Shown here: positions 1-58,637 of the stretch, piece by piece
Layout of the letters: each line of letters opens with the position of its first letter
Position numbering within the stretch: position 1 is the first letter of the stretch
Assembly: GCF_028641065.1 (NCBI RefSeq)
Contig: NC_073403.1
Coordinates: 14,260,001-14,324,000 of the forward strand
Reading direction: 5' to 3'
Source: Leucoraja erinacea
Taxonomy: Eukaryota
Length of the DNA: 64,000 bases
Translations under genes and position numbers: made by a program
Notes under the pieces: generated by a model
Seen by the model: only the letters and a program-made list of their open reading frames with translations
What the model was told of the DNA's origin: nothing
Database searches by the model: none

Positions 1-74
1 GGCTCTGCAAGCGCTGTAAGGCAACAACTCTACCGCTGCGCCATGGTGCCTCCCTTGTCAGTGGCGAGACACAC

Positions 75-575
75 ATGCAGTATTGTGTACAGTTCTGGTC
101 ACCCAGCTGTAGGAAGATTGTCATTGAGCTGGAATGGGTGCAGAGGAAATTCATGGGGATGTTACCAGATTTGGAGGGCTTGCATTACAAGAAGCTGGAT
201 AGACTGGATTTTTTGAGCAGTGCCCTTAGAGGTATACAGAATCATGAAGGGAGTAGAAAAGGTGGAAGGTCATATCCCCCCCCCCCCCCCCCCCCCCCCC
301 CCAGGTAAGGAATTTTAAAGCCAGACAGCATAGGTTTAAAGCGAGGGAAAGGATTTAAAAGGGACCCAAAGGGCAACATTTTCTACACAAAGAGTGGTGG
401 GTATGTGATACAAGGTGCCAGAGGAAGTGATTACGATGATTAAAAGACATTTAGATCGGTATATGGATGGGAAAGGTTTAGAAGGATAGGAGGCAAACGG
501 TACCAGCTCAGATGGACATCTAGGTCGTCATGGATGAGTTAGGCCAATGGGCCTGCTTCTAAGATGTACAACTGA
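75..575 (+). mobile_element. CR1-like LINE 3' fragment
   Basis: QYCVQFWSP..LEWVQRKF (CR1 ORF2 C-terminus) followed by CR1-type 3' UTR. Confidence 0.8.
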
Positions 576-778
576 GATTTATCTCAATGCTATTTCTACT
601 GCTGGGATCAAATTATACAAAGTAAAACAGTGTAAAAATAACGAAATAAAAAAATAGTACGTTACTTCTGGGGTACAAAAGTCTACAAGTGCATGAATTG
701 TTTTATAGTAGCAACAACTCTAATGTTACCTCTTTGAATGATTATTGTGGATCTGTTAAGTGTATTTGATATACTGAC

Positions 779-12628
<11,850 letters not shown>

Positions 12629-12757
12629 TGTTTAGCTGCATAAACACAAAATGAGAATTACTGAAACTTCATAAAACTTTGAAATCATAGATTCATCTTA
12701 CATGACATATAGAAAAGGGCCCTTTAGTCCATCTCTCACAATTTCAGAATACATAGA

Positions 12758-12917
12758 TACGTTACAAGGCCTTCTACGCCCGTACCTCCAGACTTAGGAA
12801 CAGCTTCATCCCCAGAGCTATAGCTGCTCGGAACCGGCCCTTGCATGAACTGTCTCCCTCGGATAGTCACGTCGCACATCGAGCCTGCACAGACCTATTT
12901 GCGCTTTATAGTGTTTT

Positions 12918-12955
<38 letters not shown>

Positions 12956-13063
12956 TGTTTCTCTGGGTGTCTATATTTTAAGCTAATTAAGTTATTACAT
13001 TGGATGGAAACTGCATACTAAATCTCGTTGTACCTCTGTGCAATGCCAATAAAATATATTATT
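12758..13063 (+). mobile_element. Rex1/Babar-like LINE 3' fragment
   Basis: Translates YKAFYARTSRLRNSFIPRAI (Rex1-type RT C-terminus), then UTR with poly-T and CAATAAA tail; flanking duplication ATACATAGA (12749-12757, 13064-13072). Confidence 0.65.
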
Positions 13064-13067
13064 ATAC

Positions 13068-13315
13068 ATAGACAATAGATGCAGGAGTAGGCCATTCAGA
13101 GCTTCGAGCCAGTACCGCCATTCAAATGGATCATGCCTGATCGTCCACAATCAGTACCCCGTTCCTGCCTTCGCCCCATACTACTTGATTCCACTAGCCC
13201 TAGGAGCTCTATCTAACTCTCTTTTGAATGCATCCAGTGAATTGGCCTCCACTGCCTTCTGAGGCAGATAATTCCACAAATTCACAACTCTCTGCATGAA
13301 AATGTTTTTCCTCAA
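13068..13315 (-). mobile_element. CR1-like LINE 3' end
   Basis: GCAGGAGTAGGCCATTC...CCTCCACTGCCTTCTGAGGCAGATAATTCCACAAATTCACAAC, recurrent in window. Confidence 0.7.
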
Positions 13316-14133
13316 AGCCCTGGATAAATACGTTTGAAATGAGAAAAAGGCAATAAACCCTGTATATTAAAAAGGCAAGAGATTACATAGCAGCTGCTCA
13401 CCAGAATGCAAATGTTAAGAAAAAGACTATTCTACATCATCAGTTATGACAATTAACAAAAAATTATTAGTGTGATAATGTAGATTGATCAGAACTGCTG
13501 GTAGGCAGCTAATTATATAGGTACGACATACATTATGTCTTGTGAATCCATCCTAGTATGTTACTCACAATACCATATATAAACATATATATACATACTA
13601 TAGTATATTACATAATAGTACTCAGTGGAGCAGAGCATTGAAACATTAAGATTTTTACAAAGCAACAACATTGAGTTTAGGTTTATTATTATCATCACAT
13701 GTACAGAGGTACTGCAAACAGCTTTGTTTTGCATGCTATCCAAACAGATAAGATATACCATATAGTCAGTTCAACCTCAAGCATAATAGATACAACAAAA
13801 GGAAGGTACATACAGAAAATAGTTCTCAGCATTGTAGCCTAGTAGACAAAGTCCAACACCCCCGGGGAGGGGGGGGGGGAGAGAGAACTGTTCCTGATTC
13901 TGGTGCTCTTGGCTCTTAGGGTTTGGTTAGGTTGCAAGAGGATCATGTTTACATGTGATCGTGCTGGATAGTATTTTCCTTTTAGTGGCATTTCTCCACC
14001 TACATTTTTTGTTGGAAGTTTTAGAAATGTGTTTGCTGTGAAATAAGGAAGCAGTACTGGCACACGGACCATATGATTTCTCTTTCGTGCCAATATGTTT
14101 TTATATTTGTTGTGGAACCGACAATATCATGCG

Positions 14134-14500
14134 TAGGAAGGAACGGCAGATGCTGGTTTACACCGAAGATAGACACAGAATGTTGGAGTAACTCAGCGGG
14201 ATATGCAGCATCTCGGGAGAGAAGGAATGGGTGATGTTTCAGGTCGAAACCCTTCTTCTAACCCTGCAGTATACTTCTATGGTACCACGTTCCTTCCGTG
14301 CCCTTGCCTACCTTATGTTCACTGCCAGGAGTGAAGTGGGAGTGGAACCGCTGCCGGGCTGTGGATGTGTAGGAAGGAACTGTAGATGCCCGTTTAAACC
14401 CAAAGATGACACAAAATGTTGGGGTAACTCAGCGGGGCAGGCAGCATCTCTGGAGAGAAGGAATAGGTGACGTTTCGGGTCTAGACCCTTCTTCAGACTG
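14134..14500 (-). mobile_element. two Penelope-derived pLTR fragments; second carries a minimal hammerhead motif (14467-14500)
   Basis: Family AAGGAACTGCAGATGCTGG...GCTGGAGTAACTCAGCGGG...GACGTTTCGGGTCTAGACCCTTCTTCAGAC; reverse strand reads CTGAAGA-AGGGTCTAGACCC-GAAACGTC. Confidence 0.7.
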
Positions 14501-14636
14501 ATGGTGGAGATGGGAGGTAGTGTGGGACGCCTGAGGTTGGGGTGGGCTGACCAAGCGCCACTCTAGGCCTTGAACACAAGTAGGCCCGAGAAGCCTGACC
14601 ACTGGAAAAGCACATCGCCGGAGTTTAACACCTTAC

Positions 14637-18561: not shown

Positions 18562-19228
18562 CAAGTGTTTCAAAGGTCTTTTATTGTCACGTGTACCAAT
18601 AAAGGTGCAGTGATATGCAAATTACCATACAGCCTTACGAAAAAAAAGCAACAAGACACACAACTACATAAAAGTTAACATAAACATCCACCACAGCGGA
18701 TTCCCCACATTCCTCACTGATGGAAGGCAAAAATGTCCAATCTTCTTCCTCTTTATTCTCCCACGGTCGCGGCAGTTGAACCACCATCGAAGCGGTCGAA
18801 GTCCCCGTGTCGGGGCGGTCAAATCTCCCACGGAGGTTTGACCGCCTTTGGAGTTATCGAAGTCGGTCTCTGACCAGAGACCGTGGACTCCGTGATGTTA
18901 AATCCGCAAGCACCCACGGTTGGAGCTCCAAGGTTGACCCTTGGCAAGGGAATCGTGGGCTCCTCGATGGCAAGTCCGCAGGTGACTGCGGTGGAGTTCT
19001 CAAAATCGATCTCCAGCAAAGGCCGCCAACTCCTTAATGTTAGGCCAAGGTGCAGACAGAGATACGATACAGATTGCATTCCCCTCGAGGTAAGAGATTA
19101 GAAAGCATTTCCCCAACCACCTACAGCTAAAGAACACTAAAAACACATTTAACACGTACAATTAAAACACAAGGAAGGAAAGGACAGACTGTTGGCGAAG
19201 AAGCCATTGCTGGCGCCACCCAGTGGTG
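18562..19228 (-). repeat. ~650-bp interspersed retroposon-like family, copy 1
   Basis: Collinear with 26445-27065 and 54548-55180; minus-strand AATAAA plus short-repeat tail. Confidence 0.75.
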
Positions 19229-41000: not shown

Positions 41001-44000
41001 ACGAATGATTGTTCGCTGAAACCCGCACTCGTCTTCCTTTGTGGAAAGTATGTCTCTAGCCACTGGAGTGTTTTCTCCCTGATGCAGATATTTGATTCAC
41101 ATTGAATGATATTAGTAATTGGCTGAAGACCAAACTCTGTGCTTGTAACCATCTCCGGAGAAAGCTGAGTTGGGACTGGCTGTATTTGGTTGTAAATGTT
41201 TAAGCTGCCACATAGTGAGGGCAGTGATTGAAGGAAGAGTCTTCTCCTTCAGGCGATGTGTACTCCATATGGACTACAATCCCAATCATGCATCCCTTGA
41301 AACTTTGTGAATAGGGTTTTATACACAGTAGTGCTTTTTCATTTTGTGAATCTTTGGAACTCTAGGGGCAGTAGAAGAAGAATCATGGAATATTTTAAAG
41401 GCAGAAGTAGACACTTGCTTGTTAAGGAGGTGAAACGTTACCACAGATAAAATGGAACTTGTGGCATGGTGCAAGTACTAAATGCGTGTAGGAGGTGACA
41501 ATGAATACTGCAGGGATTCCCTAATACACCATTTGCTGATCTGTAAAGCGCAGAGAAACAATATAAGTTTGCACGTGGCATCTTCGTGTAACGAGATCCC
41601 CAATGTACATTGCACAAAGCAGGGGCACCTGGCAAGGAAAGAAGTGTTTATTGGGCTCAATTCACTAAGTCAAAGGATCAAGCTGTCTCATCATTGAGCC
41701 TGCTTAATGAGTTACACTTCCCTAAACTTTCCACTGTCCTTAGATGCAGTGCACCGAATCCCCCACCGATAAAAGATCAGCCAACAGTGGACCATTGTGG
41801 GCTCCACCTTTCCTTGATCATTGTTATTATTTGCATATCTTTCATTCATTTGTTCTATATCTGTCTATATCACTTTATCTTTATCTCTTGTTTCCTGTTC
41901 CCCTGACTCTCAGTCATAAGGTCATAAGTGATAGGAGCAGAATTAGGCCATTTGGCCCATTTAAGCCCACTCTGCCATTCAATCATGGCTGACCTATCTC
42001 CCCCTCCTAACCCCATTCTCCTGCCTTCTCCTAACCATAACCCCTGACACCCGTACTAATCAAAAATCTATCTCTCTGTCCGAAGCAGTGTCTTGACCTG
42101 AAATGTCACCTATTACTTTTAGCCAGAGAGCTGCCTGACCCACTGAGTTACTCCAGCTTTTGTGTCTATCTTTGGATTAAACCAGCATGTGCAGTTCCTT
42201 CCTACCTGGTTGCCTTGTCTCCGGTTCTTTTTTTCTAGCCTCCTTTAGTTAAATTCCTGCTTTTTAACTCTAATAAATTGCACACCTCTGTTAAATCTCC
42301 CCTCAACCTTCACTGGTGTAAACATTCCAGCCTGCCCAGTCTCTGTATCATCAGCATGGTTAAGTAATCAACTTATTTTGTTCTTTTCAGGAGTGTTCAA
42401 GCAAGTCACATTCTAATATCATCAGAGGGACAGGTTTATTTATCAGGACTACGCAGTATTTTCAGTATGATCAGTCATGGACAACGGCTACGGGTGATCC
42501 ATGACTTCCCAAAATACAGTGTTAAAATATTACCATGGCTGAGCCCTGAGTTGTTGCAGCAGGTAAGCCCGCACCTACATACGCATGCTAATTATGAGAA
42601 GAAGTAAACCTACTCTACCTGGTTTGCCAGGTGAGGAAGGGACTGTGGATCCCCAGCAAGACCAAAAACAAGACCTGTCAAAGGGCGGATGAGCTCCCAG
42701 CGAGCCAACGGTCATCCATACTTCAGAAGAAGTTGTGCTCACTGTCGTACATAGCATTGTAAGGAACGATGAAATCACCATGCCCGTCTGAAACCAGCAC
42801 CACTGCGTCACTAATGTTTTCAACGATGATAAATGAATTAATCTACCACTTATTAGTGTCATGGCTGCTGATTGTAACCTCAACTCTGCTTTCCCATCAC
42901 CCCATAATAATTTTTGAACCCGTTATTTAGTAAACATCTACCCACCACTGCCTATAAAACTTTCAAAGATTCAATTTCCCATGCTCTTTGAGAACGAGTT
43001 CCAAAGTCACTCAATTTTCAGGGGGGAAGAAAAGGCCTCTTCATGTTAAATGTGTAATCCATTTTTTTTTTTAACGGCTCACAGACTTAGATCCTCACTT
43101 GAAGAACTATCATCTCCACATCCAACCTGTCAAAACCCCTCAGGGTCTTGTATGTTTCAATATGTCTTCGCTGTTCTAAACTATAGTAGATGCAAACCTA
43201 GCTTGTCCACTTCTCCCTCATCAGATAACTTACCATTCCAGTCTAGTAATCCTTACTTCAGATAAGATCTCCGCATGCCCTATATAACAAAAGCATAACC
43301 ACCCTACTTTGGATTTGAATTTCCTTTGCAATTATTGATAATATTGTTAGCTAGCCTTTGGTAAATCATTCACTTGGACATCCTGATCATCTTCAGAGAT
43401 CTAAAGTCTTTCACTATTTGGATAATATGCCGTTTTAATTTCACTTACCAAACTGGGATATTTTGCATTTTCCCACATTAAATGCCAGGGGCCTTAATGT
43501 TGAGAGACACTGGGGTGCAAGTACACAACTTGCTGAAAGTGGTGGCATGGGTAGATAGGGTAATGAAGAAGATATAAGATATTCTTGCCTACATAGGCCA
43601 GGGCATTGAGAAGAAGAGTTGGTATGTGATATTGTTGCTTTACAAAACAGTAGTGACTGTATTTGGAGTACTGCGAGTAGTCTGGTCGCCACACTACAGG
43701 GAGGATGTAGTAGAGAGAGAGAGAGAGTGCAGAAGCAAATCACCGTGAGGTTGTCTGGAATGGAGGGCTGTAAGTAGAACTTGGGCAGGTTTATTTCTAC
43801 TAGAACGTAGGTGGCTGACGGGTGACATAGATGTTTATAAAATTATGAGGGGCATAGAGGCAAAGATGGAATCATTTCCCAGGATGGGAGAGTCTAGAGC
43901 TAGAGGTCACAGGTTTAAAGAGAGGGAGGATAAATTCTAAGGCTCTCTGAGGGGAACTTTTTTCTACACGGGGTTGGTAGTAATGTAATGAGATCCCAGA

Positions 44001-47000: not shown

Positions 47001-49932
47001 ATCTCTGAATTCAATGGTAGTCGTGAGGGGCAGTGGGGAAGTTTGATGATGGCGTGCAGGAAAAAACTGCAGATGCTGGTTTATATCATAGGTAGGCACA
47101 AAATGTTGCTGGCAGTACATGGATGGTGGACTGTATTGTGAAGAAAGTGATATAAGAAAAATGGATTAGAGACAAAAAGCTTGTTTTAAGATCAATCAAT
47201 AGCAAAATAGTGCAGATAATCATGAGACAGAAAACTAGATTATTTGTAGGAAAATAGTCTTGGTATATGGCAACGGAATGGTTTCCAGAGAAGTAGATCT
47301 TTCCTGACTAATATACAAGCTTTTATTTTGAAAAGTGCCTTCCAAACAGTGGCTGATGTTGTAGTTACATTTCCAAATTCTTTCATCTGCCACTTGAGGG
47401 TTGAAATAATGGGTTTCCTTGGTGAAGCTTGAGATGCTTTGCCAGTAAAGACTGCCAGTAAGATAAGAAGTACAATGGTCAGGGATAATGTACGACCTGG
47501 AACCGTGTAATGAGTGGAGTGACCCTTCTTGATTTGGGTGACTGACCTGGATGCAAAAACCACATCAGATAAAGTTCAGGATCAATCGATAAAACGCCTT
47601 GAACTTTTATGTAACTTTAGACACAATGAAGGTTTTGAAACTTTCCATTTATTGTAGAGCAAACAGGATTGAACTGTTGACCCAAGGAACTGCAGATGCT
47701 GGAATCTTGAGTAAATAACAAAGAGTGCTGGAGGAATGCAGCCGGTCAGGCAGGATTTGTAGAGAAAAATAAAAGATCGTCGGGACCTTATTAAGGCAGA
47801 TTAGAGTAGGGGGAGAAACTTTGATAGAGTGGGACAAAACCTGGCAGTGATAGGTGGGTACAGGCGAGATGAGTGGAGTAAGTGACAAAAGCTTAAATGT
47901 AAAAATAAAAAGACAAAATGAGATAACGAAACAAGATGAGGAATGAAATGCAAAACTAGAGGGAACTATTTGGACGGAAGGGAACAGGGGGGAAGGGAAA
48001 GGGTATAATAGAGACGTGGGGCTCGGTGATGGGGATGTGCATGAAGAAGGTGAAAGGAGCAGTGTTACAGGTGGTGGGAGAAATGTGTATGCATCAGGAT
48101 GGTGGGGCAGAGGAAATAGCCTCTGGGGCTGGGGGTTAATACATGAAAATGGAGAATTCATAGTTGGTACCATTGGGTTGTATGCTACCAAGGGGAATAT
48201 CAGGTGCTTTTCTTCCAGTTTGTGTGACGTGTAAAGATGTAACTGATCAAATTCCTACACCCTCCTTTCTGTAAACAAGAACGAATAAAGGGCGCAGTTA
48301 GTTTTATGAAAATTTAATTGTCAGAGAATCTGGGGAGGATTGGAGAGTAAGAAGAGAAATAATTGGAGAGCTAGAAACAACGTGGTCCTTGAGGAAGTAA
48401 GAATGATGAAAACTGGCGTGCGTAGAATGTCCAGTTGCTGTGGCCAATATTTTCTGTAATGCTGGCACTCACTCCACTGGCTGCAAAGTACCAGCCACGT
48501 TTAATGACTTGCATTATTTGAAGTGTTTCCTGAACATGACCAAATTCATTTTGCTTTCTTTGTGATGTTTAGATGGCCAGAGATGTTCTGATTGCCTTTG
48601 CCTGTGTTTCAGATGCTGCTGGAGAAGCTGAATGGTACAGTGCCTTGCCTGCTGGACACCACAACGATTCCCGAGGAGGAGCTTCTGATGACAAACTCTC
48701 AGTCAGCGGTGGATTCTGGCATTGTAGAAAGCTCGGCCGCTTGTGACATGCGAACAACGAATGGGGAACAAGTGCAGCATCCGTACAACAGGACTTTCTC
48801 CAGGCTCTTTCACAACTTTGTGGAGTTGTGCTTGCAACGGGAGCCTGAGCAGAGGTACGTGCTTGGTGAAAGTAGCTGCTATTTGTTGATAAATTGACTG
48901 TCATTCAAGAGACATGGATTAATGCACGATAGCACTACTGTAACAAAAACCAGCTGTGATCTTGCTGAATGGCAAAGCAGGCATACTTTTGCTTCAGTTT
49001 CTGATGATCTTAACATTTTGACCTGGTGTGATGATTACTCATTGGCACATTAATCAGCTGTACCACGGTGGCCATTTTATCTGTGTAACTGTGCAGCTCC
49101 TCCACTGTAATACTGCTGTAAGTGATACTATTTGTTTCAATCCTCTAACACTTTTCTTTGTTCTTTATAGACCCTCTGCCATTGCATTACTCAATCATTC
49201 ATTTGTCAAGCAGGTATGTCCGTGGTACCAAGTTATTGGTGAAAGAAACTTCCATTATTCAAACCCAATCTAATCACAGACCTGCAGTTCCATTTATTGG
49301 ATGTTAATTTGGGGTTGAGCCATAATAAGACTCCAGTCCTTTGATATCCTTTTGGGGAATCCTTTTGCATCCTTTTGGGGAATAAGACAGGAGGCTGGAG
49401 AAGAGAAGGTGAGGAAGACATTGTCAAAGATAATAATAAGGAGTGACTGAGAGTAGAGAAGAATTTACAAAATACTCTCATCTCAATAGGTTACTAGGTT
49501 GACATCTTTTGTGACCTGATGGGGTTTTTTCTGACCAGCTATTTGAAGATATATTGATATGTAAATACACCATGACTCATAGTCAAAAGCACAACAACCT
49601 TTGAGTTTCAGACCATTGGAGGCTCTATATAAAGTCAATGAAGAAGGGGTTTCAGTACAAAGGGCCAGAGTAGGGAGGCGTTTTCATCAGGTTCTAAGCC
49701 ATGTAGCATGTGAAATCATTAAGCTCTGTGCATGTGTTTGAATTGTACCAGATCACTGACCCACCTTCTGTCCTTCCAGCTGAAGCTGCGAGTGGTGGAA
49801 GTGCTTCCCGACCTGCTGCGACCCGTCACGCCCGTGACAGAGCTGGAAGGTGCTGACCCACATGAGTTGCGAGGGATGACTGAACTTGTGTCCAGCCTGG
49901 ACCAGCTGGAGATGGAGGACTGGGACTTCTGA
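22618..49932 (+). CDS. STRADA: STE20-related kinase adaptor alpha (LKB1-activating pseudokinase), complete, 12 coding exons, 1272 nt / 423 aa
   Basis: Spliced translation MSFL|[10 protein letters not shown]...[10 protein letters not shown]...[15 protein letters not shown]...YLSGLRS...[38 protein letters not shown]...[15 protein letters not shown]...LEMEDWDF*. It has STRAD pseudokinase signatures (HRS for HRD, GLR for DFG). Exons 22618-22629, 24009-24066, 30978-31006, 36074-36176, 37616-37737, 38653-38761, 39452-39575, 42391-42562, 45705-45809, 48613-48854, 49171-49213, 49780-49932 are all GT-AG and in frame. Confidence 0.96.
24009..24066 (+). CDS. STRADA: STRADA exon ([19 protein letters not shown])
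   Basis: 58 nt, TAG/GTAAGT, matches RWVSEK of STRADA. Confidence 0.92.
24185..24490. mobile_element. non-autonomous TIR element (Harbinger-like MITE), copy 1
   Basis: TIRs GCCCCTGTCCCGCTGTACGAGGTAATTCAA / TTGAATTACCTCGTACAGTGGGACAGGGGC; TA-rich flanks; homologous to 44027-44356. Confidence 0.8.
25645..26126 (+). mobile_element. tandem non-autonomous Helitron-like units with poly-C tracts
   Basis: Two copies of AAACAGACCCAACGGGTCTGCACTTGGTCTAGT (hairpin AGACCC/GGGTCT followed by CTAG terminus) ending at 25806 and 26126. Confidence 0.55.
26445..27065 (-). repeat. ~650-bp interspersed family, copy 2 (internal GAAGCTCC.. tandem subrepeats)
   Basis: Shared AAAAAAGCAACAAGACACACAACTACATAAAA and GGAGATACGA..AGAGATT blocks. 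Confidence 0.7.
30978..31006 (+). CDS. STRADA: STRADA 29-nt micro-exon ([10 protein letters not shown])
   Basis: TAG/GTGAGT; 29 nt restores frame between flanking exons; resembles human EQPPGDTRRK. Confidence 0.85.
33255..33570 (-). mobile_element. V-SINE carrying a 33-bp hairpin insertion
   Basis: GCCAATTAACCTACAAACC...CCGGAGGAAACACATGCAGTCACAGGGTGAACGTGCAAAC is the reverse-complement V-core. Confidence 0.8.
33475..33507. mobile_element. 33-bp hairpin mini-element with 8-bp TSD (hAT-like)
   Basis: GTGCAAAC|CAAAGATCCTATAGC-TCC-GCTATAAGATCTTTG|GTGCAAAC. Confidence 0.75.
36074..36176 (+). CDS. STRADA: STRADA exon ([35 protein letters not shown])
   Basis: 103 nt, AG/GT flanks. Confidence 0.92.
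37616..37737 (+). CDS. STRADA: STRADA exon ([41 protein letters not shown])
   Basis: 122 nt, CAG/GTAAGG. Confidence 0.94.
38653..38761 (+). CDS. STRADA: STRADA exon ([36 protein letters not shown])
   Basis: 109 nt, TAG/GTAAGT. Confidence 0.95.
39452..39575 (+). CDS. STRADA: STRADA exon ([42 protein letters not shown])
   Basis: 124 nt, CAG/GTAAT. Confidence 0.95.
40405..40705 (-). mobile_element. L2-clade LINE 3' fragment
   Basis: ORF 40528-40728 [42 protein letters not shown] is a typical L2 ORF2 C-terminus, followed by a 3' UTR with AATAAA and short-repeat tail. Confidence 0.85.
42391..42562 (+). CDS. STRADA: STRADA exon ([22 protein letters not shown]...[10 protein letters not shown])
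   Basis: 172 nt, CAG/GTAAGC. Confidence 0.95.
43490..45150 (+). mobile_element. cluster of decayed CR1-like LINE fragments (interrupted by MITE at 44027-44356)
   Basis: LEYC..WSPHY-type remnants and CR1 3' UTR motifs. Confidence 0.7.
44027..44356. mobile_element. non-autonomous TIR element (Harbinger-like MITE), copy 2
   Basis: ~47-bp TIRs AAGCCCTGTCCCACGGTATGAATTCATTCCAAGAGCTCTCCCGAGTTT; TTA duplication on both sides; nested in CR1. Confidence 0.85.
45705..45809 (+). CDS. STRADA: STRADA exon ([35 protein letters not shown])
   Basis: 105 nt, CAG/GTATAG. Confidence 0.95.
46839..46880. repeat. short tandem repeat CTGTAATCTTGTAAT x ~3
   Basis: Direct inspection. Confidence 0.85.
47685..48230 (-). 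mobile_element. longer Penelope-derived fragment (pLTR with purine-rich tract)
   Basis: Begins with the same AAGGAACTGCAGATGCTGGAATCTTGAG motif and continues through a purine-rich tract. Confidence 0.6.
48613..48854 (+). CDS. STRADA: STRADA exon ([20 protein letters not shown]...CLQREPEQR)
   Basis: 242 nt, CAG/GTACGT; ORF 48592-48897. Confidence 0.95.
49171..49213 (+). CDS. STRADA: STRADA exon ([14 protein letters not shown])
   Basis: 43 nt, TAG/GTATGT. Confidence 0.93.
49780..49932 (+). CDS. STRADA: STRADA last coding exon ([18 protein letters not shown]...MEDWDF*)
   Basis: CAG acceptor, TGA stop at 49930-49932. Confidence 0.94.
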   Translation: MKLRVVEVLPDLLRPVTPVTELEGADPHELRGMTELVSSLDQLEMEDWDF

Positions 49933-50111
49933 AAGTGGACATGTTGTTCAAGCTGGGCCTGGTGATGCCATTGGTCTTTATTTGTATTTTTTATGTAAAA
50001 GGCAGTTTTGCTGATTTACAGCGAAGTGTGGCACTAATAGATGCTGAATAGCAGGGGTGCACATCAAACCAGCTTAGGTGGGTGAAGGACCACAACCTGT
50101 ACATTGATTCA

Positions 50112-51188
50112 CAGTGCCCTCCATAATGTTTGGGACAAAGACCCGTCGTTTATTTATTTGCCTCTGTGCTCCACAATTTGAGATTTGTAAGAGAAAAAAT
50201 CACATGTGGTTAAAGTGCACATTGTCAGATTTTAATAAAGGCCATTTTTACACATTTTGGTTTCACCATGTAGAAATTACAGCAGTGTTTATACATAGTC
50301 CCCCCATTTCAGGGCACCATAATGTTTGGGACACAGCAATGTCATGTAAATGAAAGTAGTCATGTTTAGATACAAGTTAATCTTCGTCTCATCAGTCCAC
50401 AAGACCTTTTTTCAGAACTGTGGTTGCTCTTTTAAGTACGTCTTGGCAAACTGTAACCTGGCCATCCTATTTTTGCGACTAACCAGTGGTTTACATCTTG
50501 CAGAGTAGCCTCTGTATTGCTGCGCATGAAGTCTTCTGCGGACAGTGGTCATTGACAAATCCACACCTGACTCCCGAAGAGTGTTTCTGATCTGTCGGAC
50601 AGGTGTTTGGGGAGTTTTCTTTATTATAAATCAGCTGTGGAGGTTTTCCTTGGCCTGCCAGTCCCTTTGCGATTAGTAAGCTCACCAGTGCTCTCTTTCT
50701 TCTTAATGATGTTCCAAACAGTTGATTTTGGTAAGCCTAACGTCTGGTTGATGTCTAACAGTTTTATTCTTGTTTCGCAGTCTCATAATGGCTTCTTTGA
50801 CTTTCATTGGCACAACTTTGGTCCTCATGTTGATAAACAGCAATAAAAGTTATCAAAGGTGATGGAAAGACTGGAGGAAATACTAGGTGCTGAGAGCTCT
50901 CTTATACCTGCATTAAGGAGGCAATTAAACACACCTGAGCAATTACAAACTCCTGTGAAGCTATGTGTCCCAAACATTATGGTGCCCTGAAATGGGGGGA
51001 CTGTGTAGAAATACAGCTGTAATTTCTACATGGTGAAACCAAAATGTATAAAAACACTCTTTAATAAAATCTGACAGTGTGCACTTTAACCGCATGTGAT
51101 TTTTTTCTATTACAAATCTCAAATTGTGGAGTGCAGAGGCAAATAAATAAATGATGGGTCTTTGCCCCAAACATTATGGAGGCCATTG
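50112..51188 (-). mobile_element. internally deleted Tc1/mariner (IR/DR type) transposon
   Basis: ~220-bp inverted repeats (CAGTGCCCTCCATAATGTTTGGGACAAAGACCC ... GGGTCTTTGCCCCAAACATTATGGAGGCCATTG-TA) with inner direct repeats. Minus-strand transposase remnant from ATG 50828: MRTKVVPMKVKEAIMRLR...LGLPKSTVWNIIKK...GTGRPRKT...VLWTDETKINL (GRPR motif, first catalytic D), then deleted. Confidence 0.9.
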
Positions 51189-52763
51189 TACTTGAATACT
51201 AGAGATTTCAGATCACAACCATTACCCTTCTATTACTGTACCAGCAGCCAGTGAGCGCTGAAGCATTGCGCTCACATCTTATGTGAGAACAGAGTGATTA
51301 TCCTTACCTGGTCTCACCTCTGGTGAGTAAGGTGGTAGCTTTCTTACCCTTGTGAGTACGAAAGCATTGTCCTTGCACCTTTCTCACCAGTTAGCATGAG
51401 TTCAGCAGCAGTCCTCAAACCTGCTATGAATGCAGAGATAACGTCCACACTCTTCTTGACCATCTTGAAAACAGAGCCACTGTTTTGGAATCCGTTACAG
51501 ATAGATGCTGTGCTTCATCTCTCCTATCACACTGAGAGCGTGAAATATTCACTGTTTTATTACCTTCTTACATGAAATCCCTTTGTATCTGAATTGTTAT
51601 TTATTCAGAGTCAACCAATATTAAAGTTTCATTTGGTTACAACTATGTGAAACCCTTCTGCACTACATCATCTATGCAGCTTTTGTACCAGCTTTTTACT
51701 TAAGCATTTGAGCAATAGCGAGTCACTTGGCTCAGCTGAGACCGTCACTGGCAGTTGATGTTGGATTCATTGCTTGTCCTTCAGAGCTGGAGTAGGGCCA
51801 ATGTAGTCATTCTTTTGTGGGTCAGAATCCGTTCAAGGAGAATCCTGGCTCAACTGACAACTTCAACTTAACCAGAGTTCTGAAGATTACCGCACAAAGC
51901 AGCCTTACCCTTTTAGATGTTAGCCATTGCAAGAGGCCCCAGTCGGATTCCTTCAATGTATCTGGGGGGTGTCACCAGTACTGCAGCAAGAGTTCCCATA
52001 GTTACAGCTGGGAGCATACAGGAAATCCAAGCTATGATGCCGACTTAGAGGCATCCCCTGGGCAGCTCATGTCAATTCAACATCAACCCATTGACGTTGC
52101 CTTCCTCTACTCGATGAGCATGGTTCTCAGCCAATTTGTGGCTCCAACCAGTGGAGCGGTCAGACAATACAGTGAAGCTGGTAAATTGGCACAAAACAAT
52201 ATGTGCAAGAGTGAATAGTGGCCATGGTCATTGTGGAATGTTTCGACTTACTCTACAATCGCAAATCCACGGTTTCAGTTCCAACATCTGAAGATCTTGG
52301 AGATGTTGTAGTTGTGACCATCTTTAAGAGATATGCAACTATGATAACCACAAAGGGGTCCATTGCTGTTCACCATGGGGAAAGTCATACTCTGTGTCCT
52401 TTTTCAGTGGGTAAAGGGATAAGCGGAATTAGCCATCACAGTCAGCCTGGGTGGGTAAGTGAATGGCCCGTTTCTGTGCTGTAAAACTCCATGACTCTAG
52501 GTCCACTGCTTACTAAATGACATTGTCTTCCGACAATGAATGTTCTTTAAAAAGGACATGAAGTCACTGCAGGAGGGGTGACCAGGTGGACAAAGGATAT
52601 ACTGAAAGCCTTGGAATCTCATGAGCATTTGGAACAATATTGAGAAAACACCTGAATGTCTATTTTCTCCCACCATATGTTCTTGAACCTCCTAACCTGT
52701 AATTTGGTTGTCAGAAACCATCTATTAGATGTCACCGAACAGGATATTATTACCAACACTCTT

Positions 52764-53393
52764 TTTATTTCAAAATATACTTTATTCAAAAAATAAATAT
52801 ATACATGATCGTTACAAAACTCCATCCGACATTCTCGGAGGCTATACATACAGTTTCCTCAAATCACAATTTTTTTACCCCACCCCCTTGCCGCTCATGT
52901 GGCCCACTGGCATGGAATCCCTTCCCTTATTTTGAGGGGCGTCTTCACCACACCCTGACCCCCATGTCCAGCAGCAGAGGGACCCTATACTGTGGTCCTC
53001 CCCCACCGAGCCTTGATGTTGGCTGCACAGAGCTTCAATGGGTCCCTCAGCACGTACTCTCGGGCCAGTCAGCAACATTCCCTGACGGACATCTCGCTCC
53101 GCTGGGTGGTGAACAATGCTCGGGCAGACCAAAGAGCATCTTTCACTGAGTTGATGACCCTCCAGCAGCACTCGATGTCCGTCTCTGAATGCGTCCCTGG
53201 GAACAGTTCGAAAATCACAGAGTCCTCTGTGACGGAGCTGTTCGGAATAGACCATGACAGGGACCCTTGCAGACCTCTCCAGACTCTCTTTGCGAATCCA
53301 CACTCTGCAAAGAGGTGGGCAACCACCTCCTCTCCATAGCCATCCCGAGGGCAGCGTGCGCTGGTAGTGAGGTTCCGATGGTGTAGGAAGGAT
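52764..53393 (-). mobile_element. 5'-truncated Tx1-clade (L1-like) LINE 3' end
   Basis: ORF 53069-53410 shows the zf-RVT pattern RCPRDG..EEVVAHLFAECGFAKRVW; AATAAA-rich 3' tail; 11-bp direct duplication CCAACACTCTT at 52753-52763 and 53394-53404. Confidence 0.8.
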
Positions 53394-54215
53394 CCAACAC
53401 TCTTCATCACAGCCAGGTTGACATAAAGAAGGACTTATGGAGCTGGTGTTCTCCAGTATGATGAATAAAGTTGAAAGGAATGAGTGGGTTAATGTGGGTT
53501 GTCTATGGATGAGCCACCTGATGTGGCTGACTGACAGGATCAAATTCCTCCGTTTCTCATTCCAGCTCTGTCTCCCCTCACATTCCCCAATAATGTGAAC
53601 ACAATTAAGGTCTTCACACTGTGGTGTACAGATCCTGTTGAGACTGTCACGCTCACTGCATGTGTGCATTACTCTTCCGCTTACTGCGAATGGCCACCTA
53701 ACTCTGAGCAGGTTGCTGTACAATGAGGCTGACACAGAGGAGGCTTTTGAATTAACAAGAATGAAGCCCAGCAGGGATTCACGGTATGGGAATGTGCCTT
53801 CCTGGAGACTTTCTCCTTTAAGTAGGACAACCTATTAATAAACATGACGCAGCCACTTACTCTATGCTACACGGTAAATTATAAAGGCTGAACTAAGCTC
53901 TCTGATCTTAGTGATTTGACCAAATTCATTGTGAAGTTTATCTCTTCCAGTGTTCCCAAATCAAATTTCTGCAGAGCAGTAAATCTCTAAAACTGCGCAA
54001 AGTAACACCGCAAGAGATAAAACCAGAAACTGCGAGTAATAAGATTGGGCATGATAAGCAGAGTGGCAATGTCATGCTGAGGAAGTCCCAGCCTCACCCA
54101 GGTGGACTATGCAATGCTTCCCGCAGGTTGGAGGATAACAAATGTGAATCTGCTATTTGAAGGAAAAAAGAGAGAGAAAGCAGGGAGTGACCAACTATTA
54201 GCCTTCTGTTAGCCC

Positions 54216-54345
54216 GTCTGAAGAAAGGTCATGACCCGAAACGCCGCCCATTCCTTCGCTCCATAGATGCTGCCTCACTCGCTGAGTTTCTCCAGCATTT
54301 TTGTCTACCATCGATTTTTCCAGCATCTGCAGTTCTTTCTTAAAC
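54216..54345 (+). mobile_element. Penelope-derived fragment with hammerhead-like motif
   Basis: CTGAAGAAAGGTCATGACCCGAAACG...CCAGCATCTGCAGTT. Confidence 0.7.
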
Positions 54346-54547
54346 ATTAGCCTGCTGTTGATCGCCGGGAAGTTGCTGAATCTATAAAAATGTGGCATTA
54401 AGACAGAAAATAACAGTAGGATTGGCCTATGACAAGGACTTGTCAAATGCAGTTTCCATTTTATTGGTTTATTGGAATTCTTTGAGGATGTATCTGGTTG
54501 AGTAGATGAGGAGGAAGTCGGATGATCTGGTGTACTTCAACGCAAAG

Positions 54548-55180
54548 GTTTCAAAGATATTCCATTGACACATGTACCAGTGATATGCGAATTACCATAC
54601 AGCCATACAAAAAAAAAGCAACAGGCCACACAACTACATAAAAGTTAACATAAACATCCACCACAGCAGATTCCCCACTTTCCTCACTGTGATGGAAGGC
54701 AAAAAAGTCCAAACCTCCCTCTTTATTTTCCCGCGGTCGGGGCAGTCGAACCATCCATCTGGGCAATCGAGGCTCCCACGTCGGGGAGATCAAAACTCTC
54801 ATGCCTTGGAGTTCCCGAAGTCGGTCTCTGACCAGAGACCGCGCGCTCCGTGATGTTAAAGTCTGCAAGCACCCATGGTTTGAGCTACGAGGTCGATCCC
54901 TGGCAAAGGAATCGCGGGCTCCGTGATGGTAAGTCCACAGGGACCCACGGTGGAGCTCTCAAAAGTCGTTCTCCAGCAAAGGCCGCCAACTCCTTGATGT
55001 TAGGCCGCAGTGTGGACGGAGATACGATACGGGGGAAAAAATCAAATCTTCGTCAAGGTAAGAGATTAGAAAAGATCCCCCCCCCGCAACAAAACAAGCT
55101 AAAGAACACTAAAAACATCCATTTAACACATACTATTAAAACACAAAGAAGGAAGGGACAGGCAGACTGTAGGCGATGCA
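54548..55180 (-). repeat. ~650-bp interspersed family, copy 3
   Basis: High similarity to 18562-19228 by eye. Confidence 0.75.
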
Positions 55181-55879
55181 GTTTAAAGGTGTTTTTGAAG
55201 AGATCCCACAAACGAGGATGGCCAAGAAGATCAGGCCACATGGAATTGTGGTAAGATACTGTCATGGATAGAGAATTGATTAACAGAGAGAAAACAAAGA
55301 ATGGTAATAAACAGGTCATTCTCAGGTTGGCAGACTGTAACTAGTGGAGTATCGCAGGGGGGTCCCAACTATTCACCATCTGTGTCAATGATTTGAATGA
55401 ATGAGAGAACCATATGCTAAAATCCTAGGTTTGGTGATGTCTCAAGACAGAATGGGAATGTGAGTAGTAGTGAAAATGATAAGAGTCTACACGGGGATAT
55501 AGATAAGTTGAGTATGTGGACAATAGCAAGGCAGATACAATCTGATTTGGGGATTATTTTATATTTATTGACAATTTTTCTGATTTCTACTTCACTTGTT
55601 CCCTCTTTTGCTCCCTGCTGCCTGTTCCGTGATCTTCTGGTTCTCATCTGTGCTTATGATGCTGTGTTGGTCAGATTGAAGATTGAAGTGCCTTGTTATG
55701 TAGTCTTCATAGGCTGAATCATTTCCCATTAGATATGAAGACTTGCAGAATGTTTATGTGACACAAAGGTAACAGTTAAGGGAGAAAAATTGAGAAAAGG
55801 TGAGCTTCCCCATCCTTATAAAACAGTACGTTTTCAGGTTTGCTCTTCGACAATCCATTGAAACTGAAACTGAAACCCT

Positions 55880-56040
55880 ATATTTAAGAGGGAGTTAGAT
55901 GTGGCCCTTGTGGCTAAGGGGATCAGGGGGTATGGAGAGAAGGCAGGTACGGGATACTGAGTTGGATGATCATATTGAATGGCGGTGCAGGCTCGAAGGG
56001 CCGAATGGCCTACTCCTGCACCTAATTTCTATGTTTCTAT
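55880..56040 (+). mobile_element. young CR1-like 3' end
   Basis: GGGATCAGGGGGTATGGAGAGAAGGCAGG...GGGCCGAATGGCCTACTCCTGCACCTAATTTCTATG(TTTCTATG) tail. Confidence 0.75.
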
Positions 56041-57532
56041 GAAACATTCCCTGATTATACTTAGGCTTAGACTCCTGTGATTTGCTTGTGAATCTCACCC
56101 TATTCCTGGCTTGTAGCCCATAAGATAGTGAGAAAATGCCATGGCAACCAGTTGCTAGATTACATCGTGCATGGTAAATAGTTCTTACTGAAATGCAGAA
56201 CATCTCCCTCTGTGCTCTGCGAAAGAAGCCTCCATAATGCTGAGCAGGCAGCTGGCCAAAGACACAAATGGAAGACAGGCTGCCGATAACATAAACAGCA
56301 TCCTCCCTGTAGAAATGAGGAACTGCAGGTTGACAAGAAAAAAGACAAAGCGCTGGAGTCACTCAGCAATGCATGTCCGCGGCACACGAGATCTCTTGTA
56401 CAGGCTGACCAAACCTGCTCTGTATCGGTGTGTCCTCCACATAAACACAAGCTCGGCATTCAATGTGTTCGTCTTTTATTTCACTGAGTTCTGTACCAAT
56501 TTGTCTCCTGTGGAGAGGATGTGTCCACTAGTGGGAGACTATGGGATCAGAGGGCATAGCCTCAGAATTAAAGGACGTTCCTGTAGGAAGAAGTTGAGGA
56601 GGAATATATTTAGTCAGAGATTGGTGAATCTGTGGAATTCATTGCCACAGAAGGCGGTTGAGGTCGTCGATGGATATTTTTAAGGCAGAGATTGGTAGAT
56701 CATTGATTAATAAGCTTGTCAGGGGTTGAGGGATCTATGCAATTTCCTCGCTTATTTTCCACCAGCACCATGGGGTGTTACCCCTCTAGGCCAGGGGATT
56801 TATCCAATATAAGGATAAAGAGTCTGACTATAAGGGTGAAGGTTCTGAAGAAGGGTCCCGATCCAAAACGTCACCCATCCATGTTCTCCTGAGATGCTGC
56901 CTGGCCCGCTGAGTTACTGCAGCACTTTGTCTATTTTTATTCCATTGGATGCCTGGAGCGCGTTGCCAAAAGTGGGGGCTGGAGGCAGAAACGACAGTGG
57001 GGCTTAAGAGGCGTTTTAGATAGCTGCGTGGACATGCAAGGAATAGAGGAATTTGGATCGTGTACAGGCGAACGCTTAGTTTAGCTTGACAACGTGTTCG
57101 GCACAAGCAATGTGGGCCGAAGGGCCCGTTCCTGTGCTGTACTGTTCCATGTTCTACGTAAGTGTAAGCTAACATTTTGGGTGATTCCGAACAAGGGTCC
57201 GACCTGCAACATTTCTTATCTATTCTATCCACAGATGTTGTCTAGATGTCGGGTCCTCCAGCACTTTGCTTCCCAGTAGCTCTTCTTATCGAATTCTCAG
57301 CTCACGCACAATCTGACCTGCACGTCCCCCTGCTGGGACTCTGGCAACCAAAGATACTAGAGGAGCTCTATAATCTTTGCTGGCAACATCCTCCTTTAGT
57401 GAGGGCGGGTGAACGCCTGCCTTCACTACCACAGCCACGGCCTCTGCCTCTGTGAAATGTTCTGCTTGCCTCACCCCTCCTCCAACTCCTTTTCTGAAAC
57501 GTCGCCGATCCATGTTATCTAGATATGCTGCC

Positions 57533-57570
57533 CAAAGATCCTATAGCAGAGCTCTGCTATAGGGTCTTTG
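57533..57570. mobile_element. 38-bp hairpin mini-element with 8-bp TSD (hAT-like)
   Basis: ATGCTGCC|CAAAGATCCTATAGCAGAG-CTCTGCTATAGGGTCTTTG|ATGCTGCC. Confidence 0.75.
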
Positions 57571-58468
57571 ATGCTGCCTGACCCGCTGAGTTACTCCAGC
57601 ACTTTATGTCTTCTTTTTTGACAACCAGATTTTGCAGTCAATGGAGACGGGTGTGAGTTCGGGGGGAAGGGAGAGTTGTGGTGGCAGGGATTAAATGGGA
57701 ACCAGGTCGTAGGGTCAGTGGCGAGTGATCTACGAGGGACAATGAGGACCAAAGATGATCTTTGATGAGGACCTTCTATCAGTTGGGAGAGAGGCCAGTG
57801 GGGATAGGGTAAAAAAAGTCAGTGGCGACATGGGTCGGTGGTGTCGACGGTCAGTGGTCTATGGGTCAAATGTGAACCTTCCATCAGTGGGAGGAAAGGT
57901 CAATGGGGACAAGGTGAAGGGGTCAGTGGACAGGGGGCAGGTGCGAGCATTGTGTCCCTGGCCCAGTCTCGGGGATTTGAGCTCGGACCGAGATAGGAGC
58001 AGAATTCGGCCATTCGGTCCATCAAGTCTACTCCGCCATTTAATCATGACTGATCTATCCAAAAATACTAGAGGATCTACTAGAAGCTCCTCTAGTATCT
58101 TTGGATCTATCTCTCCCTCCCTCCTAACCCCATTCTCCTGCCTTGTCCCCATAACCCCTGACACCCGTACTCATCAATCAAGTCAGGTCCATTCTTCGAG
58201 CCCTCTGTCCAAATCCTCCTCTTTTTTGAATAAAACGCACCCAGCCCGTCCCTCCCCTCCCTCAAACCCCACCCCTCGCCCCACTCCACTCCACTCCCGC
58301 TCTCCCCGGCCGGGCCAACTCTGTTTTCGCCCTGTGTCAGCAGCAGCCGAGCGGAGCGGAGAGAAGGCGCCCGTCAGCCCCCTCAGCCGTGGTCCCGGGG
58401 GATGCTCGGCGCTTCCATCTATAGTCAGACGCCGCCGGCTCGCCCGTCCGCCCGCCGCCCCGCTCCCG

Positions 58469-58477
58469 TATATATAA
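58469..58477 (+). promoter_or_regulatory. TATA box of MYL4
   Basis: TATATATAA embedded in GC-box-rich CpG DNA about 60 nt upstream of the MYL4 ATG. Confidence 0.8.
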
Positions 58478-58532
58478 GCCTCGCCGGCTCGTCCCGCCCG
58501 CCGCAGCCGCTGCAGACTCCGCTCCCTCCGCC

Positions 58533-58637
58533 ATGGCCCCCAAAAAAGAGGTGAAGAAGGAAGCCGCCAAGCCCGCTCCCCCGCCCGCGGAACCAGAGCC
58601 GCCCAAGGAGCCGGCCTTCGACCCAAAGAGTGTGCGG
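58533..58637 (+). CDS. MYL4: MYL4 exon 1 coding part
   Basis: Kozak CCGCCATGG; donor CGG|GTGAGT; 105 nt. Confidence 0.93.

Follow-up and report, generated by a model that had tools for sequence, protein, structure and literature searches.

The interval between STRADA and the myosin light-chain gene

The window analysed here is a stretch of 64,000 nucleotides from Leucoraja erinacea (NC_073403.1, positions 14,260,001 to 14,324,000), and between STRADA and a myosin light-chain gene it holds broken pieces with stops on the minus strand (Table 1). An original prediction had joined AG/GT-bounded segments from this interval into a hidden exon chain for a leucine-rich-repeat (LRR) protein with a signal peptide, either divergent or pseudogenised. 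Checked directly in the sequence, all five segments lie where they had been placed, with AG before and GT after each. Read from ATG 56301, their joined frames give the predicted peptide, which runs for 178 residues to the first stop. Segment 5 has its two stops, and the second frame of segment 2 reads as described.

Table 1. Features of the interval, in window coordinates
Feature	Position	Strand	Remarks
Expressed distal 3' UTR	51328..51642	+	ends after ATTAAA at 51620; X1 depth 175, X2 50
Segment 5	51909..52007	-	rest of LRR-CT; stops 52004-52002 and 51974-51972; third cysteine absent
Segment 4	52252..52321	-	last LRR and LRR-CT start (KPWICDCR); donor AGA/GTAAGT; best-preserved piece
LINE 3' remnant	53072..53434	-	in intron; Pfam zf-RVT E 6.4e-5; high multi-copy depth
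Segment 3	53518..53831	-	four to five highly degenerate 24-residue repeats; open in the window's allele only
23-nt deletion site	53542..53548	.	between 9-nt direct repeats
29-nt GT..AG stretch	53832..53860	-	removal sets the LRR core 48 codons ahead of the LVNS motif (hand count)
Exon-like piece missed by the original prediction	53861..53968	-	36 codons; LEEINFTMNLV core; two stops
Segment 2	55830..55863	-	other frame gives the latter half of an LRR-NT cap (VSMDCRRANLKT); splice sites weak
Young repeat insertion	55862..56042	-	short target-site-like repeat at flanks; edge forms the AG of segment 2
Segment 1	56189..56306	-	ATG 56301; signal-peptide-like start; donor TCA/GTAAGA; single-copy body
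Old short-repeat tail	56308..56368	-	provides the strong acceptor ahead of 56306

The plus-strand UTR probably belongs to STRADA, and 267 nt separate this gene's 3' end near 51642 from that of segment 5. The LINE remnant is presumably a Tx1 element. The UTR end, the zf-RVT match, and the profile ranks and PDB matches given below all support the view of a pseudogenised LRR gene that converges on the STRADA 3' end and has a LINE remnant in an intron. No Rfam family was found in 49900-58600.

PolyA reads of X9 have zero depth on 51722-52429 and 53610-54081, which cover exons 4 and 5 and most of exon 3, although this RNA test is weak, being one run from another or unknown species of which 6% was read, with a depth of about 2 (first mates on the minus strand) on the control UTR. 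Contigs of X1 and X2 run unspliced through the proposed splice sites, with the introns equally covered, and may be DNA, so they were not counted for or against splicing. One X1 contig that stops right at 53831 is without a loose end and was also left out of the count.

Splice sites and open frames

Segment 1 is possibly, and with some uncertainty, the former first coding exon. The hydrophobic core of its start (2.23, equalled by 25 of 2,631 ATGs) was scored by hydrophobicity alone and is only suggestive of a signal peptide. Its donor is at the 88th percentile and the acceptor before it at the 99.9th. Of 40 scored matches to the repeat tail that provides this acceptor, which we take to be SINE-type, 39 are other places (78-91% alike, query 55-129), and there are copies that terminate in identical letters. 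Segment 2 has the weak donor (54th percentile) and the repeat-flanked acceptor (75th percentile) that had been pointed out for it, the latter made at the edge of a young insertion with 39 other copies among 40 scored (92-98% alike). Organism D is without this insertion, 55861 being joined to 56043. Segments 3-5 have donors between the 95th and 99th percentiles (segment 4 at the 97.6th, segment 5 at the 99th), and the acceptor of segment 5 is at the 96th. The bodies of segments 1, 3, 4 and 5 are single copy in a genome search, segment 2 lies outside the repeat match, and only two acceptors are repeat-derived, which argues against transposon ORFs as the source of the segments.

The 104-codon open frame is in itself not beyond chance, since the window has 57 stop-free stretches of at least 104 codons. 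The LxxLxLxxN periodicity that had been proposed for the joined peptide holds in weak form: the relaxed pattern has two matches against 0.74 expected, one of them within the signal-like stretch, and the strict pattern has none. The LRR region together with the missed exon gives the same counts, two relaxed and no strict. Common long frames, two repeat-made acceptors, and the lack of strict LxxLxLxxN, LRR-NT and full LRR-CT matches would all suit an origin by chance, in which free choice of AG/GT ends and frames yields LRR-like words from intergenic DNA that was never a gene.

Probable leucine-rich repeat ancestry

Three separately trained profiles speak against such an origin. The second half of an LRR-NT cap at 55864, in the unjoined frame of segment 2 for which this likeness had been suggested, ranks 4 of 187,924 positions (11.3 bits against a training median of 16.7). 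The best LRR unit in the window, at 53959, ranks 1 of 127,852 and lies outside the exons of the original prediction, in the missed piece. The LRR-CT start at 52275 runs on across the 52252/52007 GT-AG pair, an exon-intron trace, and when spliced it outscores all 187,900 unspliced background positions, while the second half of this cap is matched by 700 of the 187,900. The three sites, at or near the top of 128,000-188,000 background positions, are on one strand and in N-to-C order within 3.7 kb, and the probability of this strand, order and spacing by chance is roughly 0.0009. The profile tests were partly picked once the motifs had been seen, and every score is far under those of real repeats (6.4 where their 5% quantile is 13.3, and 10.6 where the median is 39.8). 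Segment 3, with four repeats in register, is equalled by 77 of 187,420 null positions.

Segment 4 is two residues under the usual spacing. Its PDB matches, 14 in number with a best E of 0.13, are without exception extracellular LRR proteins, the nearest being RTN4R, VLRC, FLRT2, TPBG, GP9 and RTN4RL2. The PW-x-CDC-x motif with a GTRAG donor has three matches in 2.19 Gb, of which exon 4 is the sole W-form and the other two are not LRR genes; a control pattern has one match. An intron after CDC-x occurs at no other exact-pattern LRR site of this genome. Judged from sequence comparison, the LRR ancestry is probably real.

The general searches are silent. Pfam assigns no family to five queries or to seven (the segments and three read-through frames), a PDB sequence search with exon 3, two read-through frames and the missed exon gives nothing or weak unrelated matches, and word-based homologue searches with longer proteins give zero, which is weak evidence. 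A full HMMER scan returned just two proteins, repeat-summed and unrelated, and these were rejected. In the skate's own genome, the locus is not among the 26 of 26 LRRCT matches or among the 150 of 185 LRR_8 matches listed. No parent copy was found there by genome searches or with 77 LRR domains, taken from a library that favours long exons and includes only a portion of this genome's LRR genes. Exon 3 is the best block for 1 of these 77 proteins; in a splice-aware test the locus is best for 5 of 77 and second of 40 by mean Z, with one control block above it. In the literature, nothing relevant was found on an LRR gene in the STRADA/myosin interval; supplements or annotations may list one. The higher control block and the absence of Pfam, homologue and significant PDB matches thus favor chance, but the agreement of the profiles, the all-LRR matches and genome-wide uniqueness of exon 4, and the strong donors of segments 3-5 weigh against it, and a chance origin appears unlikely.

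The chondroadherin-type assignment is not established. On exon 3 the highest score of any single gene belongs to one that we take to be chondroadherin-like (L032/L110, C37; Z 4.97 and 5.82; tblastn E 0.081), but the alignment skips exon 4, ends in intron DNA and is partly spurious, and the LRR-CT of that gene lies within one exon. The loci that are presumably CHAD (L031) and CHADL (L033) have Z of 1.4 and 1.6 on the same comparison. A resemblance to what we took by eye for the LRRC4 family was not upheld (Z 2.1, 1.8, 1.1).

Probable decay of the locus and alternative readings

The stops of the missed exon, at 53881-53879 and 53869-53867, are common to organisms A, B and D, and so to 4/4 versions, and with this exon included the extended chain has four stops. 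The adjoining GT..AG stretch may be a shrunken intron or an insertion, its 29 nt being less than the 37-65 nt that the available text of PMC4463651 gives for the shortest conserved human introns. Organisms B and D, 2/2 relatives covering the deletion site in segment 3, have a 23-nt longer allele, the only one seen in B, in which a stop closes the predicted frame and an LxLxxNxI core appears in the frame of exon 4. Exon 3 has diverged as the introns have (16/191 against 41/622, Fisher p 0.42), and 9 of its 23 changes are synonymous against 27% expected (p 0.14). Both caps are incomplete. The regular expression in the available text of PMC2235866 finds no four-cysteine LRR-NT cap, of which the second half alone survives, out of frame; the LRR-CT1 cap has its P(W/F)xCxC half, and the later two cysteines are absent, with stops in place. 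The shared stops, those of segment 5, the long allele, the shortness of the 29-nt stretch, the incomplete cap cysteines, the intron-like exon 3, the lack of X9 reads and the single copy number all speak for a locus that is probably dead.

A divergent but intact four-exon gene, as the original prediction would allow, is unsupported. Two of its acceptors come from repeats, its frame needs the deletion that both covering relatives lack, exon 2 is joined in a non-LRR frame, and the LRR-bearing exon with stops is overlooked. The repeat-made acceptors, the deletion, the shared stops, the intron-like divergence and the absence of RNA reads indicate that this open frame is probably no gene.

The segments are likely the remains of a long-dead multi-exon extracellular LRR gene, probably a unitary pseudogene, that likely makes no protein today. 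The pseudogene would be old and unprocessed. Unitary (unprocessed) pseudogenes, as defined in the available text of PMC5187791, resemble the locus, which is single copy, keeps exon-intron traces, and has disabling changes in its four stops and a frame-changing 23-nt difference. The usual case is anchored by a functional orthologue in another species, of which the protein searches here gave none, and these remains are too degraded for standard profiles to recognise.

It is improbable that a functional LRR gene survives here in strongly diverged form, with exons smaller than those drawn (e.g. 53831-53685), the stop-bearing parts skipped, and expression in a tissue that was not sampled. Its donor at 53685 is consensus-like in all versions, A and D included, and hints of constraint remain in exon 3 of organism A, with 7 of 14 changes synonymous (p 0.057), and in the LRR core, which is unchanged in A over 53873-53977 (105 nt) and has its first three changes in D synonymous. 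Against these, exon divergence overall equals that of introns, and just 3 of 12 changes in D are synonymous. Segment 5 lacks the third cysteine and carries two stops, the donor at 53860 is GC in A and D, one low-depth contig of A carries a G at -3 of the acceptor at 53832, and X9 has no reads. With its stops, length change and intron-like divergence, and with no reads in the weak X9 test, the frame does not look intact, expressed and constrained. It is very improbable that acceptors donated by two repeats, together with a private deletion of 23 nt, have re-opened a spliced, secreted 178-residue product from the dead locus, on an antisense transcript that starts in the CpG-rich promoter region of the myosin light-chain gene. 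Only the window's allele leaves the four-exon frame open, and the acceptor before 56306 is strong, but the ends were chosen to fit the frame, the segment 2 sites are weak, no expression was seen, a single-sequence AlphaFold model of exon 3 is unfolded (pLDDT 33.5, weak evidence), and the stop that comes early in segment 5, ahead of a strong donor, would likely lead to degradation of the message.

The pieces were probably once parts of one LRR gene, read on the minus strand as a signal exon, an LRR-NT exon, some six or seven LRRs and lastly an LRR-CT that would have been split by an intron right after its second cysteine and one further residue. The gene probably died before organisms A and D and this genome separated (about 7% neutral divergence), and the open frame of the original prediction would be incidental, produced by later insertions and a single deletion. 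Like the extracellular LRR proteins with LRR-NT and LRR-CT1 caps (Dolan et al., PMC2235866, as far as its available text describes them), the locus shows, in this order, a signal-like start, an LRR-NT half, apparent 24-residue repeats, PWxCxC, and a leucine/tryptophan-rich helix start; unlike them it has no strict repeat consensus and lacks the first LRR-NT and last LRR-CT cysteines. From the residue after the second cysteine to the presumed third it has 12 positions, against 19-24 in the LRR genes of this genome.

As known now, the locus is an ordinary old pseudogene, and its value hinges on an intact orthologue in sharks or chimaeras, to which we would give about one chance in three as a matter of judgement. 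Such an orthologue would mean that this lineage lost an extracellular LRR gene whose C-terminal cap held an unusual intron, possibly a gene with no mammalian counterpart, and the loss could be dated by the alleles of relatives. The locus is also a clear warning case: a strong AG end can come from a repeat tail, and a dead exon can appear open after a single deletion.

LRR signals at the locus

The original prediction was a minus-strand chain of four in-frame exons and a fifth with two stops, encoding a protein with a signal peptide and leucine-rich-repeat-like (LRR-like) sequence, between STRADA and a myosin light-chain gene. Standard searches were silent. Pfam gave no family in two query sets (five, then seven queries), and the two proteins that the full HMMER scan returned were unrelated and repetitive; three homologue searches were empty. 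Profiles were therefore built from LRR loci of the same genome.

Among 127,852 window positions, the highest LRR-unit score (6.4 bits, against a 5% quantile of 13.3 for real repeats) belongs to minus-strand position 53959, which lies outside the predicted exons. At 55864, the latter half of an N-terminal cap (LRR-NT) ranked 4 of 187,924 by profile; its frame is the other one that had been noticed for the 55830 segment and left unjoined. The start of a C-terminal cap (LRR-CT) across the 52252/52007 junction scored 10.6, which beats all 187,900 unspliced background positions but falls well short of the training median of 39.8; 700 of these positions match the LRR-CT second half. For LRR unit, LRR-NT half and LRR-CT start to lie on one strand, in the right order and at most 3 kb apart, a rough simulation gave 0.0009, which is optimistic because the tests were partly selected once the motifs had been seen. 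Independently of the profiles, a PDB search with exon 4 (E cut-off 10) gave 14 matches, every one an extracellular LRR protein. Exon 4 also has the only W form among three genome matches (one for the control) to P-(W/C/F/L)-x-C-(D/N)-C-x-GTRAG; the other two were rejected as not LRR. Exon 3 holds four 24-residue units in register, and 77 of 187,420 null positions do as well. LRR ancestry of the locus appears very likely.

Alignments of 77 LRR domains count against this reading. In the frameshift-aware version the exon 3 block was best for one domain and in the top 13 for five. In the splice-aware version the locus was second of 40 blocks by mean Z, was best for five domains and had the highest single Z (5.82), in an alignment that omits exon 4 and is partly spurious. 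By the definitions in PMC2235866, the joined peptide retains just the first half of LRR-CT1 and shows neither a strict LRR nor an LRR-NT. A literature search of paper listings gave nothing relevant on an LRR gene between STRADA and a myosin light-chain gene, and PMC5435141 and PMC2768988 offered nothing decisive for the locus.

An LRR gene at L110 / L032 (G000:C37:6991000-7000000) combines a signal peptide with two LRR exons, one fibronectin-like exon and a membrane-spanning segment. What we take to be a CHADL-like gene lies about 20 kb from it.

The predicted exon chain

All five segments have the AG/GT ends and translations predicted, and their joined frame runs for 178 residues ahead of the first stop. 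The 104-codon open frame of exon 3 is unremarkable, as 57 stop-free stretches of such length occur in the window. The frame stays open for 318 codons, from 53518-53831 on to 52878 (minus strand), across a LINE remnant in a non-LINE frame. This is the longest stop-free stretch among those listed for the window and is probably due to chance.

Features of the locus and its neighbours. Splice-site percentiles use rough splice frequencies; donors are ranked among GT sites.
Feature	Position	Strand	Remarks
STRADA exon	42392-42562	+	Matches STRAD alpha, E 4e-26
STRADA last exon	ends 49933	+	By reading of the sequence
Exon 5	51909-52007	-	Donor 99th, acceptor 96th percentile
Exon 4	52252-52321	-	Donor 98th, acceptor 88th; PDB matches (E up to 10, best 0.13) RTN4R, VLRC, FLRT2, TPBG, GP9, RTN4RL2
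Exon 3	53518-53831	-	Donor 95th, acceptor 96th
29-nt GT..AG stretch	between missed piece (to 53861) and acceptor at 53831	-	Length and ends read from the sequence
Missed piece	53968-53861	-	36 codons; AG before, GTAAGT after; two stops
Exon 2	55830-55863	-	Donor 54th, acceptor 75th
Exon 1	56189-56306	-	Donor 88th, acceptor 99.9th
Essential myosin light chain	start 58534	+	Best PDB matches MYL3, E 6e-24

The acceptor before 56306, the strongest of the five, comes from the terminus of an old repeat tail, for which 39 of 40 scored matches lie elsewhere. That of exon 2 arose where a young repeat borders the segment; relative D lacks this repeat, and its contig joins 55861 to 56043. The 5' half of the predicted model therefore rests on repeat-made ends. 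A LINE-type insertion was found in an intron as predicted (zf-RVT match, E 6.4e-5). A 630-nt repeat (54548-55176; 78% to 18567-19198) is also intronic, and its strand-biased RNA depth (311 vs 28) in X9, a run of organism C, probably comes from other copies.

Exons 1 and 2 and the missed piece have phases incompatible with joining in the LRR frame. Removing the 29-nt stretch places the LRR-core Asn exactly 48 codons ahead of the LVNS motif (manual count). The shortest conserved human introns on record are 37-65 nt (PMC4463651), so a functional intron is a less likely explanation for this stretch than an insertion or an intron that has shrunk.

Relatives, expression and history

Contigs of three relatives (A, B and D) were aligned to 53490-54010. 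B differs from the window at 5/478 positions and D at 28/521, with 40 of 42 difference rows listed. Both, the two relatives whose contigs cover the site, have 23 extra letters near 53545. In this longer allele a stop closes the predicted frame and an LxLxxNxI core appears in the frame of exon 4. The open exon 3 is therefore the product of a deletion that, to date, this assembly alone shows. A, B and D all share both stops of the missed exon, and in A and D the 53860 donor reads GC.

Divergence of exon 3 from A (16/191 sites) is like that of two intron contigs (41/622; Fisher p 0.42); for the STRADA UTR the figure is 13/315 (p 0.14). Synonymous changes in the predicted frame number 9/23 overall (expected 27%, p 0.14), 7/14 in A (p 0.057) and 3/12 in D. 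Over 53873-53977 (105 nt) A is identical to the window, with about 7 differences expected, and D differs at 9 sites (40 of 42 rows listed); within 53968-53882, D has three letter changes that are synonymous and three that are not. This is a small hint of constraint, or chance variance.

X9 is one polyA paired-end run (about 6% read). In this shallow sample depth was zero in bins 51722-52429 and 53610-54081 and below 0.5 in 56206-56441, with about 2 over the STRADA UTR, and none of the 15 joints listed (3,336 more lie outside the listing) links the predicted exons. These data are weak evidence against expression.

The most likely history is that the minus strand once carried, in tail-to-tail orientation with STRADA, an extracellular LRR gene of several exons. 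This gene would have been inactivated before the split of A, D and the present genome, and would have decayed since at a neutral rate while gaining the LINE remnant, short repeats and small indels. Homologue searches found no intact orthologue. The locus fits an unprocessed, probably unitary pseudogene as defined in PMC5187791. Of the predicted "divergent or pseudogenised" gene, the pseudogenised reading has support; a divergent but intact gene with the predicted frame does not.

Neighbouring genes

The window (G000:C27:14260001-14324000) belongs to a 2.19 Gb genome. Read coverage over 51328-51642, ending after ATTAAA at 51620, probably marks the distal STRADA 3' UTR. A Tc1/mariner-like remnant (50111-51189; 226-nt inverted ends, 91% alike; transposase pieces broken) lies between the STRADA stop codon and this expressed piece, and is therefore probably inside the 3' UTR. 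Upstream of STRADA are exons of a DEAD-box helicase gene (window 1-14600, minus strand, and L117), which we take to be DDX42; the myosin light-chain gene is presumably MYL4, as originally labelled. Amniote gene order differs from the direct STRADA/myosin light-chain adjacency found here, which may be a rearrangement breakpoint. Short palindromic stretches at 58057-58106, which has letters in common with 57368-57350, and at 57533-57570 may have arisen by inverted duplication on a local scale or be artefacts of the assembly.
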